The translations under genes and the position numbers were made by a program. The notes under the pieces were generated by a model. It saw nothing but the letters and a program-made list of their open reading frames with translations. It was not told the origin of the DNA and searched no databases. A DNA stretch of 64,000 nucleotides from a candidate division WOR-3 bacterium (GTDB lineage Bacteria; Hydrothermota; Tepidihabitantia; Tepidihabitantales; Tepidihabitantaceae): contig CBFGJV010000011.1 in NCBI GenBank assembly GCA_965649205.1, forward strand, positions 15,455 to 79,454, read 5' to 3'. Shown piece by piece: positions 510 to 7,542 of this stretch (position 1 is the first letter of the stretch; the number at the start of each line of letters is the position of its first letter).

Positions 510-1682
510 ATGAAGGAACGCACTAAGTTTTTCATAATCCTCGCTGCGTTCCTGCTCTTCTATTTCCTGCCGGTGGAACATGCCCGGGTACAAGGAGCAT
601 TGCTCGAAGGTTTTCTGATGCTGCAAGATTACGCCCGGCTCCACGTGCTTCTCTGCCTGGTGCCAGCTTTTTTCATCGCTGGTGCAATCCAGAACTTCAT
701 CTCCAAGGAAGCGGTGCTCAAGTACTTCGGCCCGAAGTCAAACAAGGTGCTGGCGTATTCCGTCGCGTCGGTATCGGGCGCGATTCTCGCGGTCTGCTCC
801 TGCACCGTGCTCCCGATGTTCATGGGCATCTACTACGCAGGCGCGGGTCTGGGCGTCGCCTCGACGTTCCTCTATTCCGGCCCGGCCATCAACGTCCTTG
901 CCATTCTGATGACCGGCCGCGTGCTGGGCCTGGAGCTTGGGGCGGCACGCGCCATCGGCGCAGTTGTCTTCTCGGTAGTCATCGGACTGGGTATGGCGCT
1001 TATCTTCTTCAGGTCGGAACGCCGGCGGGCCGAAGGCGCCGGTATCGCCGGACTCTCTTCGGAAGCGGCCCGGCGCAACCTCGGCCAGAACATCCTCTAC
1101 TTCGCTGCGATGATTGCCTTCCTTGTCTTCGCCAACTGGGGCAAACCCAAAGAACCCATCGGCTTCTTCAGCGCGGTCTATTCGGTCAAGTGGTTCATCG
1201 CCGGCGCATTCCTGCTCACCACGCTCTTGATGGTCTGGCGCTGGTTTTCGGGAGACGAAAGAAAGGCCTGGGTTCAGTCAACCTGGACCTTTGCCAAGCA
1301 GATTCTACCCCTGCTCCTCGGCGGCGTCTTTGTTGCCGGGTTCCTTCTGGGTCGGCCTGGGCTGAACGCGGGCATCATTCCGGACGGCATCATCGCCAAC
1401 CTCGTCGGCGGCAACTCGCTCTGGGCCAACCTGTTTGCTTCGGTCTCGGGCGCGCTGATGTACTTCGCCACCCTGACTGAGATACCGATATTGCAGGGGC
1501 TGCTCGGCTCCGGAATGGGCAAAGGCCCGGCGCTCGCCTTGCTCCTCTCCGGCCCGGCGCTCTCCCTGCCCTCAATGATAGTCATCACCCGCACCATCGG
1601 TCCGAAGAAGGCACTTGCCTTCATCGGCCTTGTGGTAGTCCTCTCAACCCTGGCTGGCTTGGCGTATGGAGCAGTTGTATAA
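510..1682 (+). CDS. ArsP/DUF318-like permease
   Basis: Multi-TM protein with AVCSCTVLP, SGPAINV, YFATLTEIP and GPALSLP motifs; thioredoxin and DGC neighbours. Confidence 0.85.
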   Translation: MKERTKFFIILAAFLLFYFLPVEHARVQGALLEGFLMLQDYARLHVLLCLVPAFFIAGAIQNFISKEAVLKYFGPKSNKVLAYSVASVSGAILAVCSCTVLPMFMGIYYAGAGLGVASTFLYSGPAINVLAILMTGRVLGLELGAARAIGAVVFSVVIGLGMALIFFRSERRRAEGAGIAGLSSEAARRNLGQNILYFAAMIAFLVFANWGKPKEPIGFFSAVYSVKWFIAGAFLLTTLLMVWRWFSGDERKAWVQSTWTFAKQILPLLLGGVFVAGFLLGRPGLNAGIIPDGIIANLVGGNSLWANLFASVSGALMYFATLTEIPILQGLLGSGMGKGPALALLLSGPALSLPSMIVITRTIGPKKALAFIGLVVVLSTLAGLAYGAVV

Positions 1683-1688
1683 TCAGCC

Positions 1689-3404
1689 ATGATACCCAAG
1701 GCGATTCGGCGCGAACATGTCCTAAAGGCCATCGAGGAGATAGACAAGAATGGAGCGCCCGAGCACAGGAAAGCCAAGAAGTTCCATCTCCGTTTTCGGG
1801 GACAAGACTACTCGCCCAAGCTGATTCTCTCGTTGGCCAGCCGCTTCGCATGTGGCCGTGAGCTTCGCCCGTCCGAGTTCGGCGGAGGCAGGGAGACTAA
1901 CAACTTCCTGGAACGCCTTAGTTTCAAGATAACGGGCCAAGAAAAGCTTCTCCCGTCCAAAAAGAAAGCGCGACATAGCGATCGGTGTAGCGACTGCAAG
2001 AACGCCATCATCGAATTCCTGCGTCGGGCATATGGAACCGTCAAGGTTGACCACAGAATCCACGTGCCGGCGAGATTGGGTGGTTACCGTACCTATGGGT
2101 GCTACAACGCACTGAAGCGCATACACGCTGCTCTTCAGCAGTACAGGGGCCACGGTGACTTCGTAAGGCTTAGGAACTTGCACCGCTGCGATGCCTTCAT
2201 ACCCAGTGCCAACAGGGACGTTGAGTTCGACGAGTCTCAGCATTTCACGATGGCTCGGCATATCGCGCTCTCCCACTACCCGGTGGATCTGCCGCTTGGC
2301 TTCGATAAGCAGGAGTGGATGGAGTACTGTGAGAAGACCCGGGCCAGTGACCGTGACCCGGCCTTTCGTGACGAACAACGGGCCTGGTATGACACGCTAC
2401 GTGACTTCCTGCCACTGACCAAAGGGCTGAGTCCGACGCTGAGGATTAGGATGGGAGATGTCGCATGGTGCTCAATGAATCCTGAAGACCGCGACGACGC
2501 AGAGAAGTTCCGCAGTCTGCTGGGGCTGCGCAGGCTGAGTCCAGTCGGAACGGCTCCACATGACAACAAGGCAGGTGCCAGAATAGTCACGGTGGCCATC
2601 GAGTCAGAAGGTAACTACAGCTTCAAGGGCAGGCAGAAGCTGATGAAGGAAGTCCTAACGAAGATCCAGAAGGTGATCTCGGGCGATTCGAACTTGGTGG
2701 TCTTTCCCGCCGGGTTCTTTCATACCCGCCTGGAGTTACCAAGGGGACTTGAGGAGTTCACCGCATCGGCTCAGAGGATTCTTACGTCACTGGGTTCGCA
2801 GGATGTCGTCTGCTGCGGCATAGATGGACTCGGCGGAAGAGACCAGCTTGCCGTGGCGGTGAATCATGCGGATGTCCTGGCTGTCGGGCGGAAGTTCTAT
2901 CCCACCAAGGACGACCGCGCGAACAACGTCCGCCTTGCCGAAGGTTACCTTGCCCAGGAAGCCGGTCGAAGCAGAATCTTTGCAGTCGGGAACCGACGAT
3001 TCTACTTGGCCGTGTGCTACGATGTCTTTGGAATCAGAAAGAAGGGGCTGCCAAACCCGGATGTTGAAGGTATCATCGCACTGGTACATGAATTCGGCCC
3101 CAAGGGTGAAGTTGGCTCCAGTGACCCGTATTTCGCGAAGCACGGCTTCGCCGGAGCTTCGAAGCAGTGGAGGTGCCCGGTATTCGGAGCGGCCGTCTTC
3201 AGCAACAGGGCAGTTCCCGAGAGATGGCCAACAGGGGTCATCTGGAGTGAAGGAAGCAAGAGCACAAAGCAGTGGCGCTATGAGGACAACCCGATGAAGC
3301 CCAGTGCTGAAGTCCACGTCAGAGTAGGTACTGAAGATGCACTGATACGCATCTTCGATCTTCCTACCGCTGGCAGCAACAGAGCCGTGACTGAAAGGAG
3401 ATGA
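1689..3404 (+). CDS. Three-domain fusion: ScoMcrA-like N-terminal head, Vsr/PD-(D/E)XK-like nuclease, carbon-nitrogen hydrolase (nitrilase) fold
   Basis: N-term IRREHVLKAIEEID..YSPKLILSLA..FGGGRETNNFL; middle CDAFIP..VEFDESQHF..RDEQRAWYDTLRD; C-term LVVFPAG..RKFYP..VCYD. Confidence 0.65.
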   Translation: MIPKAIRREHVLKAIEEIDKNGAPEHRKAKKFHLRFRGQDYSPKLILSLASRFACGRELRPSEFGGGRETNNFLERLSFKITGQEKLLPSKKKARHSDRCSDCKNAIIEFLRRAYGTVKVDHRIHVPARLGGYRTYGCYNALKRIHAALQQYRGHGDFVRLRNLHRCDAFIPSANRDVEFDESQHFTMARHIALSHYPVDLPLGFDKQEWMEYCEKTRASDRDPAFRDEQRAWYDTLRDFLPLTKGLSPTLRIRMGDVAWCSMNPEDRDDAEKFRSLLGLRRLSPVGTAPHDNKAGARIVTVAIESEGNYSFKGRQKLMKEVLTKIQKVISGDSNLVVFPAGFFHTRLELPRGLEEFTASAQRILTSLGSQDVVCCGIDGLGGRDQLAVAVNHADVLAVGRKFYPTKDDRANNVRLAEGYLAQEAGRSRIFAVGNRRFYLAVCYDVFGIRKKGLPNPDVEGIIALVHEFGPKGEVGSSDPYFAKHGFAGASKQWRCPVFGAAVFSNRAVPERWPTGVIWSEGSKSTKQWRYEDNPMKPSAEVHVRVGTEDALIRIFDLPTAGSNRAVTERR

Positions 3405-3405
3405 C

Positions 3406-3645
3406 TTGAAAGTCCAGGTACTCGGAATCGGCTGTGCCCGATGTCAGGAACTCGAGAAGCGCGTGATGGACGTGCTTGCCGAGCTGAACATCGCGGCCGA
3501 CATTGAACACGTCAAAGACCTCAAGCTCTTCGCCTCGATGGGTGTCTTCATGACGCCCGGGCTTGTCATTGACGGGAAGGTCGCCTCTCAAGGCAAAGTG
3601 CCGTCCAAAGACGAACTGAAGAAGATGCTCGGCGCGGGCAAGTAG
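3406..3645 (+). CDS. Small redox-active disulfide protein (MTH895-like thioredoxin)
   Basis: LGIGCARC; GVFMTPGLVIDG; GKVPS; TTG start after GAAAGGAG. Confidence 0.9.
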   Translation: MKVQVLGIGCARCQELEKRVMDVLAELNIAADIEHVKDLKLFASMGVFMTPGLVIDGKVASQGKVPSKDELKKMLGAGK

Positions 3646-3647
3646 CC

Positions 3648-4046
3648 ATGGCTGGGTGTTGCACCTCGAACGAACCAAGCTGCACCTGCGGCTCGAAGGA
3701 CGTCCTGCTGCTGGCCTGCTCCGGCGGCTCGAACGTCGGACAGATTGCCAACGATGCGGCCAAGGCGCTCGACGGCTATGGCCAAGGTTCGATGTACTGC
3801 GCCATCGGCGTCGGTGCGCAACTAGAGAGTTTCGTCAAGAACGTCCGAGAGAACCCGTGCGTCGCGATTGACGGCTGTCCGGTAGCCTGCGTGCGCAAGT
3901 CATTGGAGAACGTCGGGGTGAGACCGGCGGTGCATGTGGTCGTCACCGAACTGGGCATCAAGAAGCACGGCCAGTTCGACCACACCAACGACGACATGGC
4001 CAAGGTCGTCGGCGCAGTCGTGGACGCGCTGGCGCATAAGCCATGA
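3648..4046 (+). CDS. DGC-domain putative zinc-binding protein
   Basis: ACSGGSNVGQ, MYC and IDGCPVAC motifs. Confidence 0.88.
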   Translation: MAGCCTSNEPSCTCGSKDVLLLACSGGSNVGQIANDAAKALDGYGQGSMYCAIGVGAQLESFVKNVRENPCVAIDGCPVACVRKSLENVGVRPAVHVVVTELGIKKHGQFDHTNDDMAKVVGAVVDALAHKP

Positions 4047-4300
4047 GCGCCCAACCCGACCCGCTCGTCTGCTATTGCGGCAAGGTCACGCGCGGTCGGA
4101 TCATCTCTGCCATCCGCGCCGGGGCGATATCGCTCAAGCAGATTCAGGAGACGACCGGTGCCGGCGTCGGCGACCGCTGCAAGGAACTGAACCCTAAAGG
4201 CGTCTGCTGCATTCCGGACATCCTCGCCATTCTCAAAGAGGTAACCGGCACGAAAGAGACCGGCGGCTGCACCTGCCCGCGCTGCGGCCCGAAGCGGTAG
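4043..4300 (+). CDS. BFD-like (2Fe-2S)/CopZ-associated Cys-rich protein
   Basis: VCYC..C..NPKGVCC and C-terminal CTCPRC; ATGA overlap with the DGC gene. Confidence 0.8.
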   Translation: MSAQPDPLVCYCGKVTRGRIISAIRAGAISLKQIQETTGAGVGDRCKELNPKGVCCIPDILAILKEVTGTKETGGCTCPRCGPKR

Positions 4301-4520: not shown

Positions 4521-4629
4521 GGATACTAGCCCCGGCGCGTGTCGCCGGGCATTGAGAGAATCTGCACGAACGGTGACGCTTCTGTGAAATAGATACTCGG
4601 CTGTAGCCACAGAGAAGCTCTGCCGGACG

Positions 4630-4758
4630 ATGCTCTACGGCCTTTCCTCGGGTGCGGCACTTGCCACGGTTGTTGGCGTCCTCATCGAAGTCCCGGTGAT
4701 GCTCCTCTTGGTACGCATCTGCCTGCGCACGCGGCACTGGTTTCCGGTCCGGGCCTGA
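4630..4758 (+). pseudogene. acr3: C-terminal remnant of Acr3 arsenite efflux transporter
   Basis: [38 protein letters not shown] matches the conserved Acr3 last-TM signature; the rest of the gene is absent. Confidence 0.8.
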
Positions 4759-4785
4759 TCAGCAACACGGCTCGTCGGTGCAGAG

Positions 4786-7542
4786 CTATATCCAGCCCTT
4801 GCGCAGCAGTAACCTCTTGACTCCCTGAGTAAGTGCCAGGTATCCGACCAGAGTGAGCGCCAGCAAAGGCCAGTAGAGCAACGGCAATCGGACAAAGCCC
4901 AGCGCGCCGGCCAGGGGCGAGTAGGGCAACCAGACGCCTACGGCCATTACCGCGAGCGTAGTCAGCGTGAGCGGCGCGCTGGCCCGGCTCTGAATGAGAG
5001 GTAATCGGTTGGTGCGGATGACGTGGATTATCAGCGTCTGCGTGAGCAGCGACTCGACGAACCAGCCGGTGTGGAACAGTGCCGCCTGGGCAGGGGTCTG
5101 GCACTTGAAGATGAAGTACATCATCAGGTAAGTCGTGTAATCGAACACCGAACTGCACGGCCCGATGAGGACGATGTAGCGGGAAATGGCACTCATAGTC
5201 CAGGGCCGGGGCCTGGCTATCTGCTCGGCGTCAACCGCATCGGTGGGAATCGGGACCTGCGAGAAGTCGTAGAGCAGGTTATTGGTCAGAATCTGTATCG
5301 GCGCCATCGGCAGGAAAGGCAGCCAGGCGCTCGCGCCCAGCACGCTGAACATATTCCCGAAGTTGGAGCTCGCACCCATCCTGACGTACTTCAGAATGTT
5401 GGCGAATACTTTCCTGCCTTCCAGCACCCCTTCTTCAAGAACAAGCAGGTCCTTTTCCAGCAGGATGAGGTCGGCGGACTCCTTGGCGATGTCCACCGCG
5501 GTATCAACCGAGATGCCCACATCCGCGGCCCGCAGCGCGGGAGCGTCGTTGATGCCGTCGCCCAGAAAGCCGACCACATGCTTGCGGCTCTGCAGTGCCA
5601 TGATGATGCGTTGCTTGTGCGCGGGAGAGAGTCGCGCCATCAGGGTCGCCTGCTCGGCTGCGGCGGCAAGTTCCTCATCCGACATCGTCTCTATCTCGGG
5701 GCCGAGCAGTACGTGGTCGCCGGCGATACCCACTTCCTCGCAGATTTTCCTGCTGACCAACTGGTTGTCGCCGGTCAGCACCTTTACCGCGACGCCGTGG
5801 CGATTCAGAGTCTCGATGGCCGGGCGGGCGGTATGCTTGGGCGGGTCAAGGAACGCGACGTATCCCTTCAGCACCAGATCCTGCTCGTCGTCTTTGGTGT
5901 AGGTCTGCCTCGGCCGCAGTTCCCGGTAGGCCAGTGCCAGAACCCGGAACCCGTCGCTGCTCAGCCGCTCGTACTCCTCTTTCAGGTCATCAATCAGGAA
6001 CGCCGCCATCGGATACAGGTTGCCGTTCAATTCGTATCGCGTGCAGCGCGCAAACACCGCCTCGGGCGCACCCTTGCAGATCAGCCGATGCCGTCCGCGG
6101 GTGCTCTTGACCACGACCGACATCAGCTTGCGCTCGAAGTCAAACGGCAGTTCGTCAACTTTCACGTGTTCCCGGGCCTGCAACCGTCCGTGCTCCTCGG
6201 TATGGCGCAGGATGGCCCGGTCGAGCACGTTGCGCAGGCCGGTCTGGAAGTAGCTGTTCAGATACGCCATCTCCAGCACCGTATCGTTTTCCTGCAACCC
6301 GACGTCGCAGTGCTGTTCTAAAATCACCTCGTCCACTGTGAGCGTGCCGGTCTTGTCGGTGCACAAGACGTCCATCGCGCCCAGGTTCTGAATGGAATTG
6401 AGCCGCTTGACGATGACCCGCTTGCGGGACATGGCGAGCGCGCCCTTGGAAAGACACACGGTCACAATCATCGGCAGCATCTCCGGCGTGAGCCCGACCG
6501 CTACCGCGACGGCGAAGAAGAAGGCTCCGCCCCAGTCGTGCTTGGTCAGCCCGTTTATGACGAAAACAAGCGGAACCAGTACCACCATGAAGCGGATCAT
6601 CAGCCAGGTGAAACCGGAAACACCCTTGTCGAAACTCGTCTGCGCCCGCTGGCCGGACAGCGTGCTGCTCATCCCTCCCAGGTAGGTCCTGCGGCCTGTG
6701 GCGACGACCACGGCCGTCGCGGTGCCGCTCGCCACGCTGGTTCCCTGATAACACACGTTGCGATATTCCAGCGGAGTCGCGGCCGCGTCACCCGGCGCAA
6801 AGCGCCGGGAATCACGGGTTTCGCCCCTGAAACCCGATTCACTGCCCGCTTCAGCTCTTGCCGGGACTTCCGGGGTTTCCCCGGATTCCGGCCGAATCGG
6901 CCCTTCGCCGGTGAGGCCCGACTCGGGGCGTTGGACGCCCGGCGATTCCGTCTTTTCAACCGGCAGGGACTCTCCTGTCAGGCTGCTCTGGCTCACGAAC
7001 AGGTCCTTGGCCGTGAGCAATCTGACGTCGGCCGGAACCATATCGCCCGCCGCCAGGTTCACGACATCCCCGGGCACGAGCTCGCTCACGGGCAACTCCC
7101 GTGCCGCACCGTCACGCAGTACGTTGGCCGTGACGCGAATCATCGCCTTCAGGCGGGCCGCGGCCCGGTCGGCCCGGTACTCCTGAAGAAACCTGAGCGT
7201 TACCCCCAAGACAACCATCACCAGCATCACCATTGCGGCACGGACGTCTTTGGTCAAATACGAAATGACGGCGAGTATTGAGAGAAGTATCACCAGCGGA
7301 TTGACAAGTGACAGCCCCAGCAGACGCAGCCAGCCGAACCGGCCTTCTTCGGCCAAGACGTTGTGACCGTGCAGCCCCTGTCGGCGCGATGCCTCCTCCT
7401 GGGTGAGACCATTTGCCGATGTCTGCAGCCTGGTGTATACCTCCGCGACCGACAGTGCGGCACACTCCACCAGAAGCGGAGATACCTGGATGCGCGCCGT
7501 CGCGCGGCGGAAAAAGCTGCTGCCCCTGCCCGGCACTGCCAT
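4786..7542 (-). CDS. mgtA: Magnesium-translocating P-type ATPase
   Basis: TGES, LTPEMLP, DKTGTLT, GDGIND, SSNFGN and FHTGWFVES motifs. Confidence 0.95.
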   Translation of the reverse strand: MAVPGRGSSFFRRATARIQVSPLLVECAALSVAEVYTRLQTSANGLTQEEASRRQGLHGHNVLAEEGRFGWLRLLGLSLVNPLVILLSILAVISYLTKDVRAAMVMLVMVVLGVTLRFLQEYRADRAAARLKAMIRVTANVLRDGAARELPVSELVPGDVVNLAAGDMVPADVRLLTAKDLFVSQSSLTGESLPVEKTESPGVQRPESGLTGEGPIRPESGETPEVPARAEAGSESGFRGETRDSRRFAPGDAAATPLEYRNVCYQGTSVASGTATAVVVATGRRTYLGGMSSTLSGQRAQTSFDKGVSGFTWLMIRFMVVLVPLVFVINGLTKHDWGGAFFFAVAVAVGLTPEMLPMIVTVCLSKGALAMSRKRVIVKRLNSIQNLGAMDVLCTDKTGTLTVDEVILEQHCDVGLQENDTVLEMAYLNSYFQTGLRNVLDRAILRHTEEHGRLQAREHVKVDELPFDFERKLMSVVVKSTRGRHRLICKGAPEAVFARCTRYELNGNLYPMAAFLIDDLKEEYERLSSDGFRVLALAYRELRPRQTYTKDDEQDLVLKGYVAFLDPPKHTARPAIETLNRHGVAVKVLTGDNQLVSRKICEEVGIAGDHVLLGPEIETMSDEELAAAAEQATLMARLSPAHKQRIIMALQSRKHVVGFLGDGINDAPALRAADVGISVDTAVDIAKESADLILLEKDLLVLEEGVLEGRKVFANILKYVRMGASSNFGNMFSVLGASAWLPFLPMAPIQILTNNLLYDFSQVPIPTDAVDAEQIARPRPWTMSAISRYIVLIGPCSSVFDYTTYLMMYFIFKCQTPAQAALFHTGWFVESLLTQTLIIHVIRTNRLPLIQSRASAPLTLTTLAVMAVGVWLPYSPLAGALGFVRLPLLYWPLLALTLVGYLALTQGVKRLLLRKGWI
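6791..6940. repeat. Cluster of six short inverted repeats forming an in-frame insert in mgtA
   Basis: CCCGGCGC/GCGCCGGG, CGGGTTTC/GAAACCCG, TCCGGGG/CCCCGGA, GGCCGA/TCGGCC, CCCGA/TCGGG, GGGCG/CGCCC. Confidence 0.7.

Follow-up and report, generated by a model that had tools for sequence, protein, structure and literature searches.

The PvuRts1I/AbaSI family comprises type IV restriction enzymes that depend on (g)5hmC, that is, 5-hydroxymethylcytosine with or without glucose, and AbaSI itself is reported to join an N-terminal Vsr-like nuclease domain to a C-terminal SRA-like reader, with the D61A, E75A and H78A mutants inactive (PDB 4par; PMC4081097). ScoMcrA carries a head domain together with a sulphur-binding domain (SBD), SRA and HNH domains in a beads-on-a-string layout, and the function of that head is given as unknown in its description (PDB 5zmm; PMC6224610). 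DRT1 and UG5 (DRT11) are conflict proteins in which a nitrilase-fold domain with a Cys nucleophile accompanies a reverse transcriptase (PMC13275509; 10.64898/2025.12.16.694600). Here we describe P0001, a gene of 571 codons in a 64 000 nt stretch of a candidate division WOR-3 bacterium (GCA_965649205.1, contig CBFGJV010000011.1, positions 15 455 to 79 454 of the forward strand), referred to below as the window. P0001 is a horizontally moving gene of patchy spread in which a domain predicted to cut DNA is fused to a nitrilase-type domain of altered make-up; we place it outside the AbaSI, ScoMcrA and DRT1 families, and it is not a canonical nitrilase. An earlier note, made from the letters of the window alone, knew of no described system with this architecture, and our searches agree: the literature yielded no description of it, with a mention in supplementary tables of defence screens possible, and papers retrieved on nitrilase domains in anti-phage work concerned defence systems of the reverse transcriptase type, apart from an unrelated one on plant autophagy. 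No PADLOC model fitted P0001 or the representatives chosen from the other kinds of tail described below, save one partial ZorE match in the C-terminal extension of protein P0121.

Direct family scans of P0001 returned nothing significant (Pfam, only DUF7255 at E 0.043; NCBIfam, Lnt at E 0.004; PADLOC, none), and a single-sequence search of the PDB gave no match. An AlphaFold2 model built on 77 sequences reached a mean predicted local distance difference test score (pLDDT) of 90.1 and a predicted template modelling score of 0.56, with three confident domains joined by low-confidence linkers at amino acids (aa) 85–93 and 282–294. Foldseek, VIA and profile comparisons bore out the ScoMcrA-like head, Vsr-like nuclease and nitrilase fold that had been proposed from the letters; segment by segment, the model matched known nuclease (Z 5.3–6.8) and nitrilase (Z about 20) structures. 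The head aligned with ScoMcrA 5zmm at VIA Z 8.2 over 69 residues (28 % identity; profile E 1.8e-4), a match limited to aa 4–90 of P0001, and its assignment to PF26345 was seen solely as a precomputed annotation in the homologue listing. P0001 thus shares with ScoMcrA the N-terminal head and the beads-on-a-string layout but lacks SBD, SRA and HNH, its other residues forming the Vsr-like and nitrilase folds. The P0001 head is very basic (isoelectric point, pI, 10.3) and likely binds DNA; since the function of the head is unknown in ScoMcrA, its presence is no proof of modification dependence.

The middle domain matched Vsr (1cw0) at VIA Z 6.8 (root-mean-square deviation, rmsd, 3.4; 111 residues aligned) and the endonuclease I-Bth0305I (3r3p) at Z 5.3, both scores being taken from the whole P0001 model. 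Because these scores are middling, the Vsr assignment leans on motifs as well. All motifs of the earlier note were located at their expected residues, namely H96-x3-C100-x2-C103, D168, V-E179-F-D181-E182-S-Q-H185 and RAWYD235 in the nuclease, and FPA341G, GRK402FYP and VC443YD in the nitrilase fold. Across all tail types, D168, E179, D181, E182, H185, D221 and D235 were invariant in 279/279 nuclease rows (proteins and locus open reading frames, ORFs, pooled, with duplicates kept). C100, C103 and C261 were nearly invariant, and together with H96 they may form a putative Zn site. A nuclease-only profile of 40 sequences aligned the pattern D..P....ExDExxH with AbaSI, weakly (E 0.23), so that D168, E182 and H185 correspond to AbaSI D61, E75 and H78; from this correspondence the P0001 nuclease is predicted to be active and metal-dependent. 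In both proteins a C-terminal accessory domain comes after a Vsr-like nuclease that bears D...E-x-D-E-x-x-H. P0001 differs in the weakness of the similarity, in its added ScoMcrA-like head and putative Zn site, and in a C-terminal domain that is an exchangeable nitrilase fold and not an SRA-like 5hmC reader; its modification dependence is predicted. Compared with Vsr and I-Bth0305I, whose fold the middle domain shares, P0001 is much larger and multi-domain, and no recurrent dcm-like partner or intron context was found at the loci examined.

The C-terminal domain, which we designated type A, matched nitrilase-superfamily chains with a best Foldseek E of 7.8e-10, and such chains filled VIA ranks 1–24 at Z 15–20 (top hit 19.9, rmsd 3.5, 228 residues aligned; overall rmsd 3.2–4.3, 215–241 aligned), whilst a type-A profile found nothing significant among PDB sequences. 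Canonical nitrilases carry a Glu within an FPE motif, which the earlier note had read as FPA in P0001 with Lys and Cys kept. This pattern proved to be family-wide: the Glu position was A or G in 187/187 type-A domains, whereas C443 and D445 were present in 187, K402 and Q386 in 186, and D379 and H467 in 185. Several Trp, Tyr and Phe residues were also near-invariant, and the second Glu was E in 172/187 and D in 6/187, P0001 belonging to the D group. Profile alignment to canonical tails of type C (see below) placed A341 on the E of FPE and C443 on the CHD motif. Because Cys and Lys are kept, the Glu is always gone and Asp379 is near-invariant, Glu loss is best read from the alignment as a selected family trait and not decay. 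The FPE Glu is likewise missing from another clade, type B, which keeps G-[IVL]-D in 40/45 and GCHD in 44/45 members; D379 may thus be the best candidate for a replacement acid. According to their PDB titles, E41 mutants of a Nesterenkonia amidase form covalent adducts, so a Cys can remain reactive without this Glu. As judged from its fold and residues, the P0001 tail is a nitrilase-fold relative with Cys and Lys and without the FPE Glu, for which hydrolysis of a non-peptide C–N bond would be a putative activity.

Homologues of P0001 numbered 936 among 8000 scored candidates; the best 120 of these 936 were 39–50 % identical and nearly all full length. A profile of 77 family sequences reached 4043 cluster representatives at E 0.001, and the family occurs in bacteria and archaea. 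Within the phylum, the nuclease was present in 10/272 genomes and the type-A profile matched 5/272. Two features had escaped the earlier note: the tail can be exchanged, and it is also met in proteins that have no such nuclease. Sequences following the nuclease clustered separately as type A (161 rows), B (48), C (31), D (7), helical forms and singletons, and this clustering gives the head and nuclease module no fewer than six kinds of tail. Type C tails have the full FPE/K/C triad, with FPE in 28/28 long members, and those that were scanned matched Pfam CN_hydrolase with E values between 4e-8 and 4e-16. By hhalign, type A was related to B (87 %) and C (93 %), whilst D, helical and G017 tails (G denotes genomes, L loci and P proteins) had no significant link to type A, and a second, degenerate amidase domain in the type C extension gained no support (<1 %). 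For 150 nuclease domains we built a quick tree by maximum likelihood; all classified non-A rows went in, whereas of the first 120 close type-A hits the majority were randomly dropped. Tail labels changed 34 times on this tree (minimum 7, shuffled mean 79). Well-supported (starred) branches forced at least five changes for type A, and many other branches were weak.

The closest relative of P0001 supplies a direct tail swap at one junction, which is new here. It is the sister protein (SH-aLRT 99) from G017, another genus of the same family, and it is 74 % identical over aa 1–282, after which it has an unlike tail followed by the same thioredoxin gene. At the DNA level the two are about 80 % identical from the arsP 3′ end through the nuclease. 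The G017 tail has a nitrilase-like motif order by eye but scored at most 5.5 % in hhalign; folded without an alignment, the protein reached a pLDDT of 34 and its fold search gave no match at E 0.001.

Restriction enzymes are known to pair a constant nuclease with shuffled tails that act as specificity modules. With slightly less than even confidence, we read P0001 as an AbaSI-like modification-dependent (type IV-like) nuclease whose nitrilase fold reads or processes a nitrile or amide base, each function being predicted; the earlier note had proposed a nuclease of this kind. The basic head would hold the DNA and the Vsr-like domain would cut it. By analogy with the C-terminal SRA domain of AbaSI, the tail would set target specificity, so that a tail swap would retarget the enzyme. 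The type-A pocket would engage a C–N group on invader DNA, the leading guess being 7-cyano- or 7-amido-7-deazaguanine, with Cys443 attacking the nitrile or amide carbon; Asp379 may stand in for the lost Glu, or else the adduct would turn over slowly and serve as a covalent grip. Bases bearing a nitrile or an amide protect the DNA of phages, and few host enzymes that counter them are known. Bases reported from phage or archaeal virus DNA include dPreQ0, dADG, dG+, fdPreQ1 and dCDG (10.1101/2023.04.13.536721). We regard as unlikely the stronger proposal that nitrilase folds without the Glu make up a hitherto undescribed class of DNA-modification reader/eraser, in which a covalent Cys grip on 7-cyano/7-amido-7-deazaguanine or another amide-bearing phage base licenses the fused nuclease and the tails form a shuffled repertoire against hypermodified bases. 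A single-gene nuclease with a nitrilase-fold target setter would, if real, enlarge the set of reader folds used in modification-dependent restriction, and it might provide reagents for mapping deazaguanine-type marks.

The foremost competitor, somewhat unlikely in our estimation, is that the nitrilase fold is a toxic effector as in DRT1, cleaving an essential amide-bearing metabolite or cofactor once the cell is infected; in this form of abortive infection the head and nuclease would sense DNA or serve as a second effector. The DRT1 nitrilase is described as the effector, its substrate being given as unknown there, and the UG5 system is reported to need its catalytic Cys (PMC13275509; 10.64898/2025.12.16.694600; PMC9122126). 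Retention of Cys (187/187), Lys (186/187) and the second acid (E 172, D 6 of 187) in type A, the intact FPE of all 28 long type C tails and the commonness of forms with the head and nitrilase fold or the nitrilase fold alone all fit an effector. Set against this, helical domains without detectable similarity to nitrilase-type tails fill the same slot, the nuclease site never decays, and stand-alone type-A genes abut DNA-acting genes at several loci. Reverse transcriptase partners were absent among scanned neighbours, save a group II intron-type gene near the G031 homologue; P0001 likewise has a nuclease as partner with no reverse transcriptase domain and no PADLOC DRT match, and type A always lacks the FPE Glu, whereas DRT1 is described with a catalytic tetrad (PMC13275509). 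P0001 and the G017 protein form a natural pair, with 74 % identical head and nuclease and two tails, in which reader and effector roles are testable by domain swap. If the tail were a toxic amidase, it would offer a simple route to the substrate of defence nitrilases, that of DRT1 being given as unknown in PMC13275509.

Gene neighbourhoods were taken for 80 of 246 genome loci. Five of the 80 lacked a flanking ORF, and at the other 75 the scan covered 258 ORFs no more than two genes from the target, with 150 of 161 ORFs lying at least 6 kb away at 50 loci as control. Defence-type families were found near the target at 19/75 loci and in 5/50 at the greater distance (locus-level p 0.038), and a paired test over 50 loci gave 16 near and 5 far (discordant 12:1, p 0.003). 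The near families were Mrr (three times), PglZ, NERD-kinase, AIPR, TIR, ThsB, SIR2, DruA, ResIII, MTES_1575, AbiEii, DNA methyltransferases, DUF4268 and NACHT-associated. DNA methyltransferase domains lay within two ORFs at 3/75 genome loci and were absent from the genes flanking P0001; there is no obligatory cognate methyltransferase, in keeping with a type IV enzyme.

A separate set of 81 loci (68 distinct at 90 %) was found by the type-A domain alone, with 126/196 neighbours scanned by Pfam and all ORFs by profiles built from recurring neighbours. DUF6884-like genes lay within two ORFs of the type-A gene at 6/81 loci (5 distinct), and genes matching PADLOC PDC-M57B, which from their motifs we take to be GIY-YIG-like, did so at 5/81 (3 distinct). 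HhH-GPD- or AGOG-like genes stood beside the type-A gene at L157/158, L178 and L207, and Nmad3 with a type I restriction-modification system did so at L153. Several of these neighbouring genes abut or overlap the type-A gene; at L170, L178 and L186 the overlap is with a stand-alone type-A gene. This context is new here, and the adjacency of stand-alone tails to alternative DNA-cutting genes at several loci supports the modification-dependent nuclease: where the tail lacks this nuclease, cutting would be done by the neighbouring GIY-YIG-like or glycosylase-like proteins. DpdC has DUF6884 as its Pfam domain (PMC12235509) and is reported to turn preQ0-DNA into ADG-DNA (PMC10164549), so that its target is the nitrile carried by preQ0 within DNA; one DUF6884-like neighbour matched the PADLOC DpdC model (E 7.5e-5). 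Together with tail swapping, the DUF6884/DpdC-family neighbours lend indirect support to a nitrilase fold that would read nitrile or amide bases. The genes of the PADLOC candidate PDC-M57 (DUF6884 plus GIY-YIG-like) abut type-A nitrilase-fold genes at several loci; PDC-M57 and DpdC are neighbours only, P0001 itself having no DUF6884 or GIY-YIG domain.

Several observations weigh against a modification-dependent nuclease. Defence enrichment was not significant at the ORF level (22/258 near and 7/150 far, p 0.17), the list of defence families was fixed after the near set had been seen, and near loci contributed up to four ORFs compared with about three far. A strict defence neighbour was present at 2/17 scanned type-A genome loci, many of which sit between housekeeping genes. 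The homologues are associated with defence genes moderately, and no more than that because the list was chosen post hoc and the type-A loci gave 2/17; on the whole, the earlier note's reading finds partial support. The DUF6884 link cuts both ways, because this domain is also tied to DNA-lesion binding, its member YfjM being listed among lesion interactors (PMC11701544); moreover, DUF6884 was found at 0/80 nuclease-anchored genome loci and had no match in this genome. Type-A domains are mildly basic (median pI 8.4, compared with 7.7 for neighbouring ORFs). They frequently lack the nuclease (33 with head and nitrilase fold and 23 with the nitrilase fold alone among 267 proteins; 18 and 28, respectively, among the 81 type-A loci), which fits an enzyme with its own job. 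The AbaSI and Vsr matches are each weak taken alone, and the defence nitrilases of DRT1 and UG5 are described as catalytic and needed for defence, that of DRT1 as the effector (PMC13275509; 10.64898/2025.12.16.694600). Further type-A arrangements included nuclease plus nitrilase fold and split genes, and a search for fusions of 1001–2855 aa found none, which is weak evidence.

The same neighbours bear on an accessory role in DNA repair. Base lesions such as N-acyl or formamide groups would then be removed or marked by the nitrilase fold, and the adjoining DNA would be nicked by the Vsr-like domain. The Vsr fold, the HhH-GPD- and AGOG-like glycosylase and DUF6884 neighbours (with YfjM as above, PMC11701544) and the many carriers that are thermophiles or archaea by record title are compatible with repair. 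Patchy cross-domain spread (10/272 phylum genomes), frequent tail exchange and a restriction-enzyme head fit conflict better, as do Mrr, PglZ, AIPR, TIR, SIR2 and DruA neighbours over housekeeping, and we consider repair decidedly unlikely.

In the window, P0001 is inserted into an ars-type operon (Table 1), its ORF starting 6 nt past the permease stop (TAA, 1680–1682) and overlapping the AAGGAG (3395–3400) that lies 5 nt ahead of the TTG start (3406) of the thioredoxin gene, as in the earlier note's account of a tightly packed metalloid operon. Empty-site evidence, also new here, came from the same-genus genome G001, where the thioredoxin gene directly follows arsP. Among 30 thioredoxin loci of the order, 11 had arsP directly upstream without an insert, and three had a family gene there (G000, which is this genome, G017 and G031). 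GC content at third codon positions was 0.66 in P0001 compared with 0.76–0.82 in arsP, trx, DGC and BFD, the first thioredoxin gene being lower at 0.54. The operon has lost a methyltransferase gene and most of an SBF/ACR3-like gene, both kept in G001, and by this comparison it is decaying; Pfam assigned SBF, and ACR3 is our presumed label. The remnant is about 1 kb shorter than the gene in G001.

Membership of the arsenic operon, in which the Cys pocket would act on an arsenical or be serviced by the adjacent thioredoxin, could account for the tight packing and for the family gene directly upstream at 3/30 thioredoxin loci, and one nitrilase-fold structure title (2e11) names an arsenic adduct. 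It is nevertheless extremely unlikely: homologues of arsP, the ArsE-type thioredoxin, DGC and BFD were found at 0/80 genome loci (one weak match to the other thioredoxin lay 8 kb off), at 0/81 metagenome or viral loci and at none of the phylum-level loci checked, so that constant co-occurrence with ars genes, which the earlier note had named as telling against a defence role, was not seen. The 11 insert-free loci and an operon reduced as described, with no evident role for a nuclease, point the same way. The ars-type operon looks like an incidental, transcribed landing site, which is all it would supply to the proposed modification-dependent nuclease.

Insertion of this kind also recalls a selfish endonuclease of the free-standing homing type, made of the head and an EDxHD/Vsr-like domain like that of I-Bth0305I, which would enter conserved gene junctions with the tail as passenger. 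Consistent with this are the I-Bth0305I match (Z 5.3), lone inserts between housekeeping genes, such as the type-A genes directly after hisS in several methanogen-related archaea (L003, L009, L016, L209), and the finding that two genera share one insertion point at the 3′ end of arsP, where DNA identity of about 80 % extends into arsP. Neither target-site nor terminal repeats at the insertion were significant. We judge a homing element very unlikely, since tails are under strong selection and live alone, insertion sites vary by lineage, and full-length matches numbered 0 in 50 697 phage records and 72 556 plasmids (the plasmids gave one partial match). Viral contigs held no relative by nuclease motifs; one head plus nitrilase-fold gene lay near an integrase.

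Table 1. Positions of P0001, its domains and the surrounding operon in the window
Feature	Coordinates	Strand	Basis or remark
571-aa three-domain gene P0001	1689..3404	+	insert between arsP and thioredoxin gene
ScoMcrA-like head domain, aa 1–84	1689..1940	+	structure, profile, PF26345
Vsr-like nuclease domain, aa 95–281	1971..2531	+	structure match, motifs
Nitrilase-fold domain (type A), aa 296–560	2574..3368	+	structure match, conservation
Left junction: TATAAT over arsP stop, 5 nt ahead of P0001 ATG	1678..1688	+	
Shine-Dalgarno-like AAGGAG of downstream gene	3395..3400	+	within last codons of P0001 ORF
ArsP_1-family permease, upstream host gene	510..1682	+	PF03773 E 1e-72
MTH895/ArsE-family thioredoxin-like gene, downstream host gene	3406..3645	+	TIGR00412 E 6e-27
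DGC-domain and BFD-like [2Fe-2S] genes of host operon	3648..4300	+	
47-codon remnant (3′) of SBF/ACR3-like transporter	4626..4763	+	whole in G001

The TATAAT of the left junction is common to the G017 copy and is not in the empty sites shown. A leaderless promoter was considered for P0001 and rejected as a family-wide feature, since 0/114 other loci had TATAAT at that spacing and 73 of the 114 had a Shine-Dalgarno-like motif; a promoter scan of the P0001 start made no call at the TATAAT. Where G001 has no such gene, the window carries a P-type ATPase gene of 918 aa (4786–7542, minus strand). In G017 the sister gene lies in a second, rearranged operon copy, downstream of a chimeric DGC 5′ fragment/arsP 3′ fragment (L097:2364–2570), and DGC and arsP share a short similar stretch at the join. 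In G031 (L099:2100–3493), a reverse transcriptase gene, which from its motifs we take to be of group II intron type, ends where a duplicated 60-bp 5′ piece of the thioredoxin gene starts; a stand-alone type-A-related nitrilase-fold gene and then the whole thioredoxin gene follow.

Among the other tails is a helical-looking domain, some 300 aa long, in which H-E-x-x-x-D and Y-x-x-C-x-x-x-x-G-P are conserved; it either occupies the tail position or is encoded by an ORF of its own that comes next (P0202, P0208, P0209, P0211, L051, L057 and L233:337–1329). Helical tails had no usable match in the Atlas, no shorter homologues and no Pfam or PADLOC match. A type-B homologue in G019 (L098:195–2513) is frameshifted and cut short beside a Mutator-family transposase. 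Two genomes assigned to different families (L218 and L219; G248 and G268) have what seems to be an identical type-A protein of 565 aa with an identical gene downstream, which may reflect recent transfer or a binning artefact. Elsewhere in the window, two ORFs at 12 504–13 812 (minus strand) resemble by eye a frameshifted integrase or transposase remnant, with no Pfam match at E 0.01. Finally, a McrB-like AAA_5 protein of 893 aa with PDC-S02- and DUF2461-like regions is followed by McrC (PF10117, E 2.5e-37) at 52 919–56 785 on the minus strand, and this pair is a candidate second type IV system in the window.

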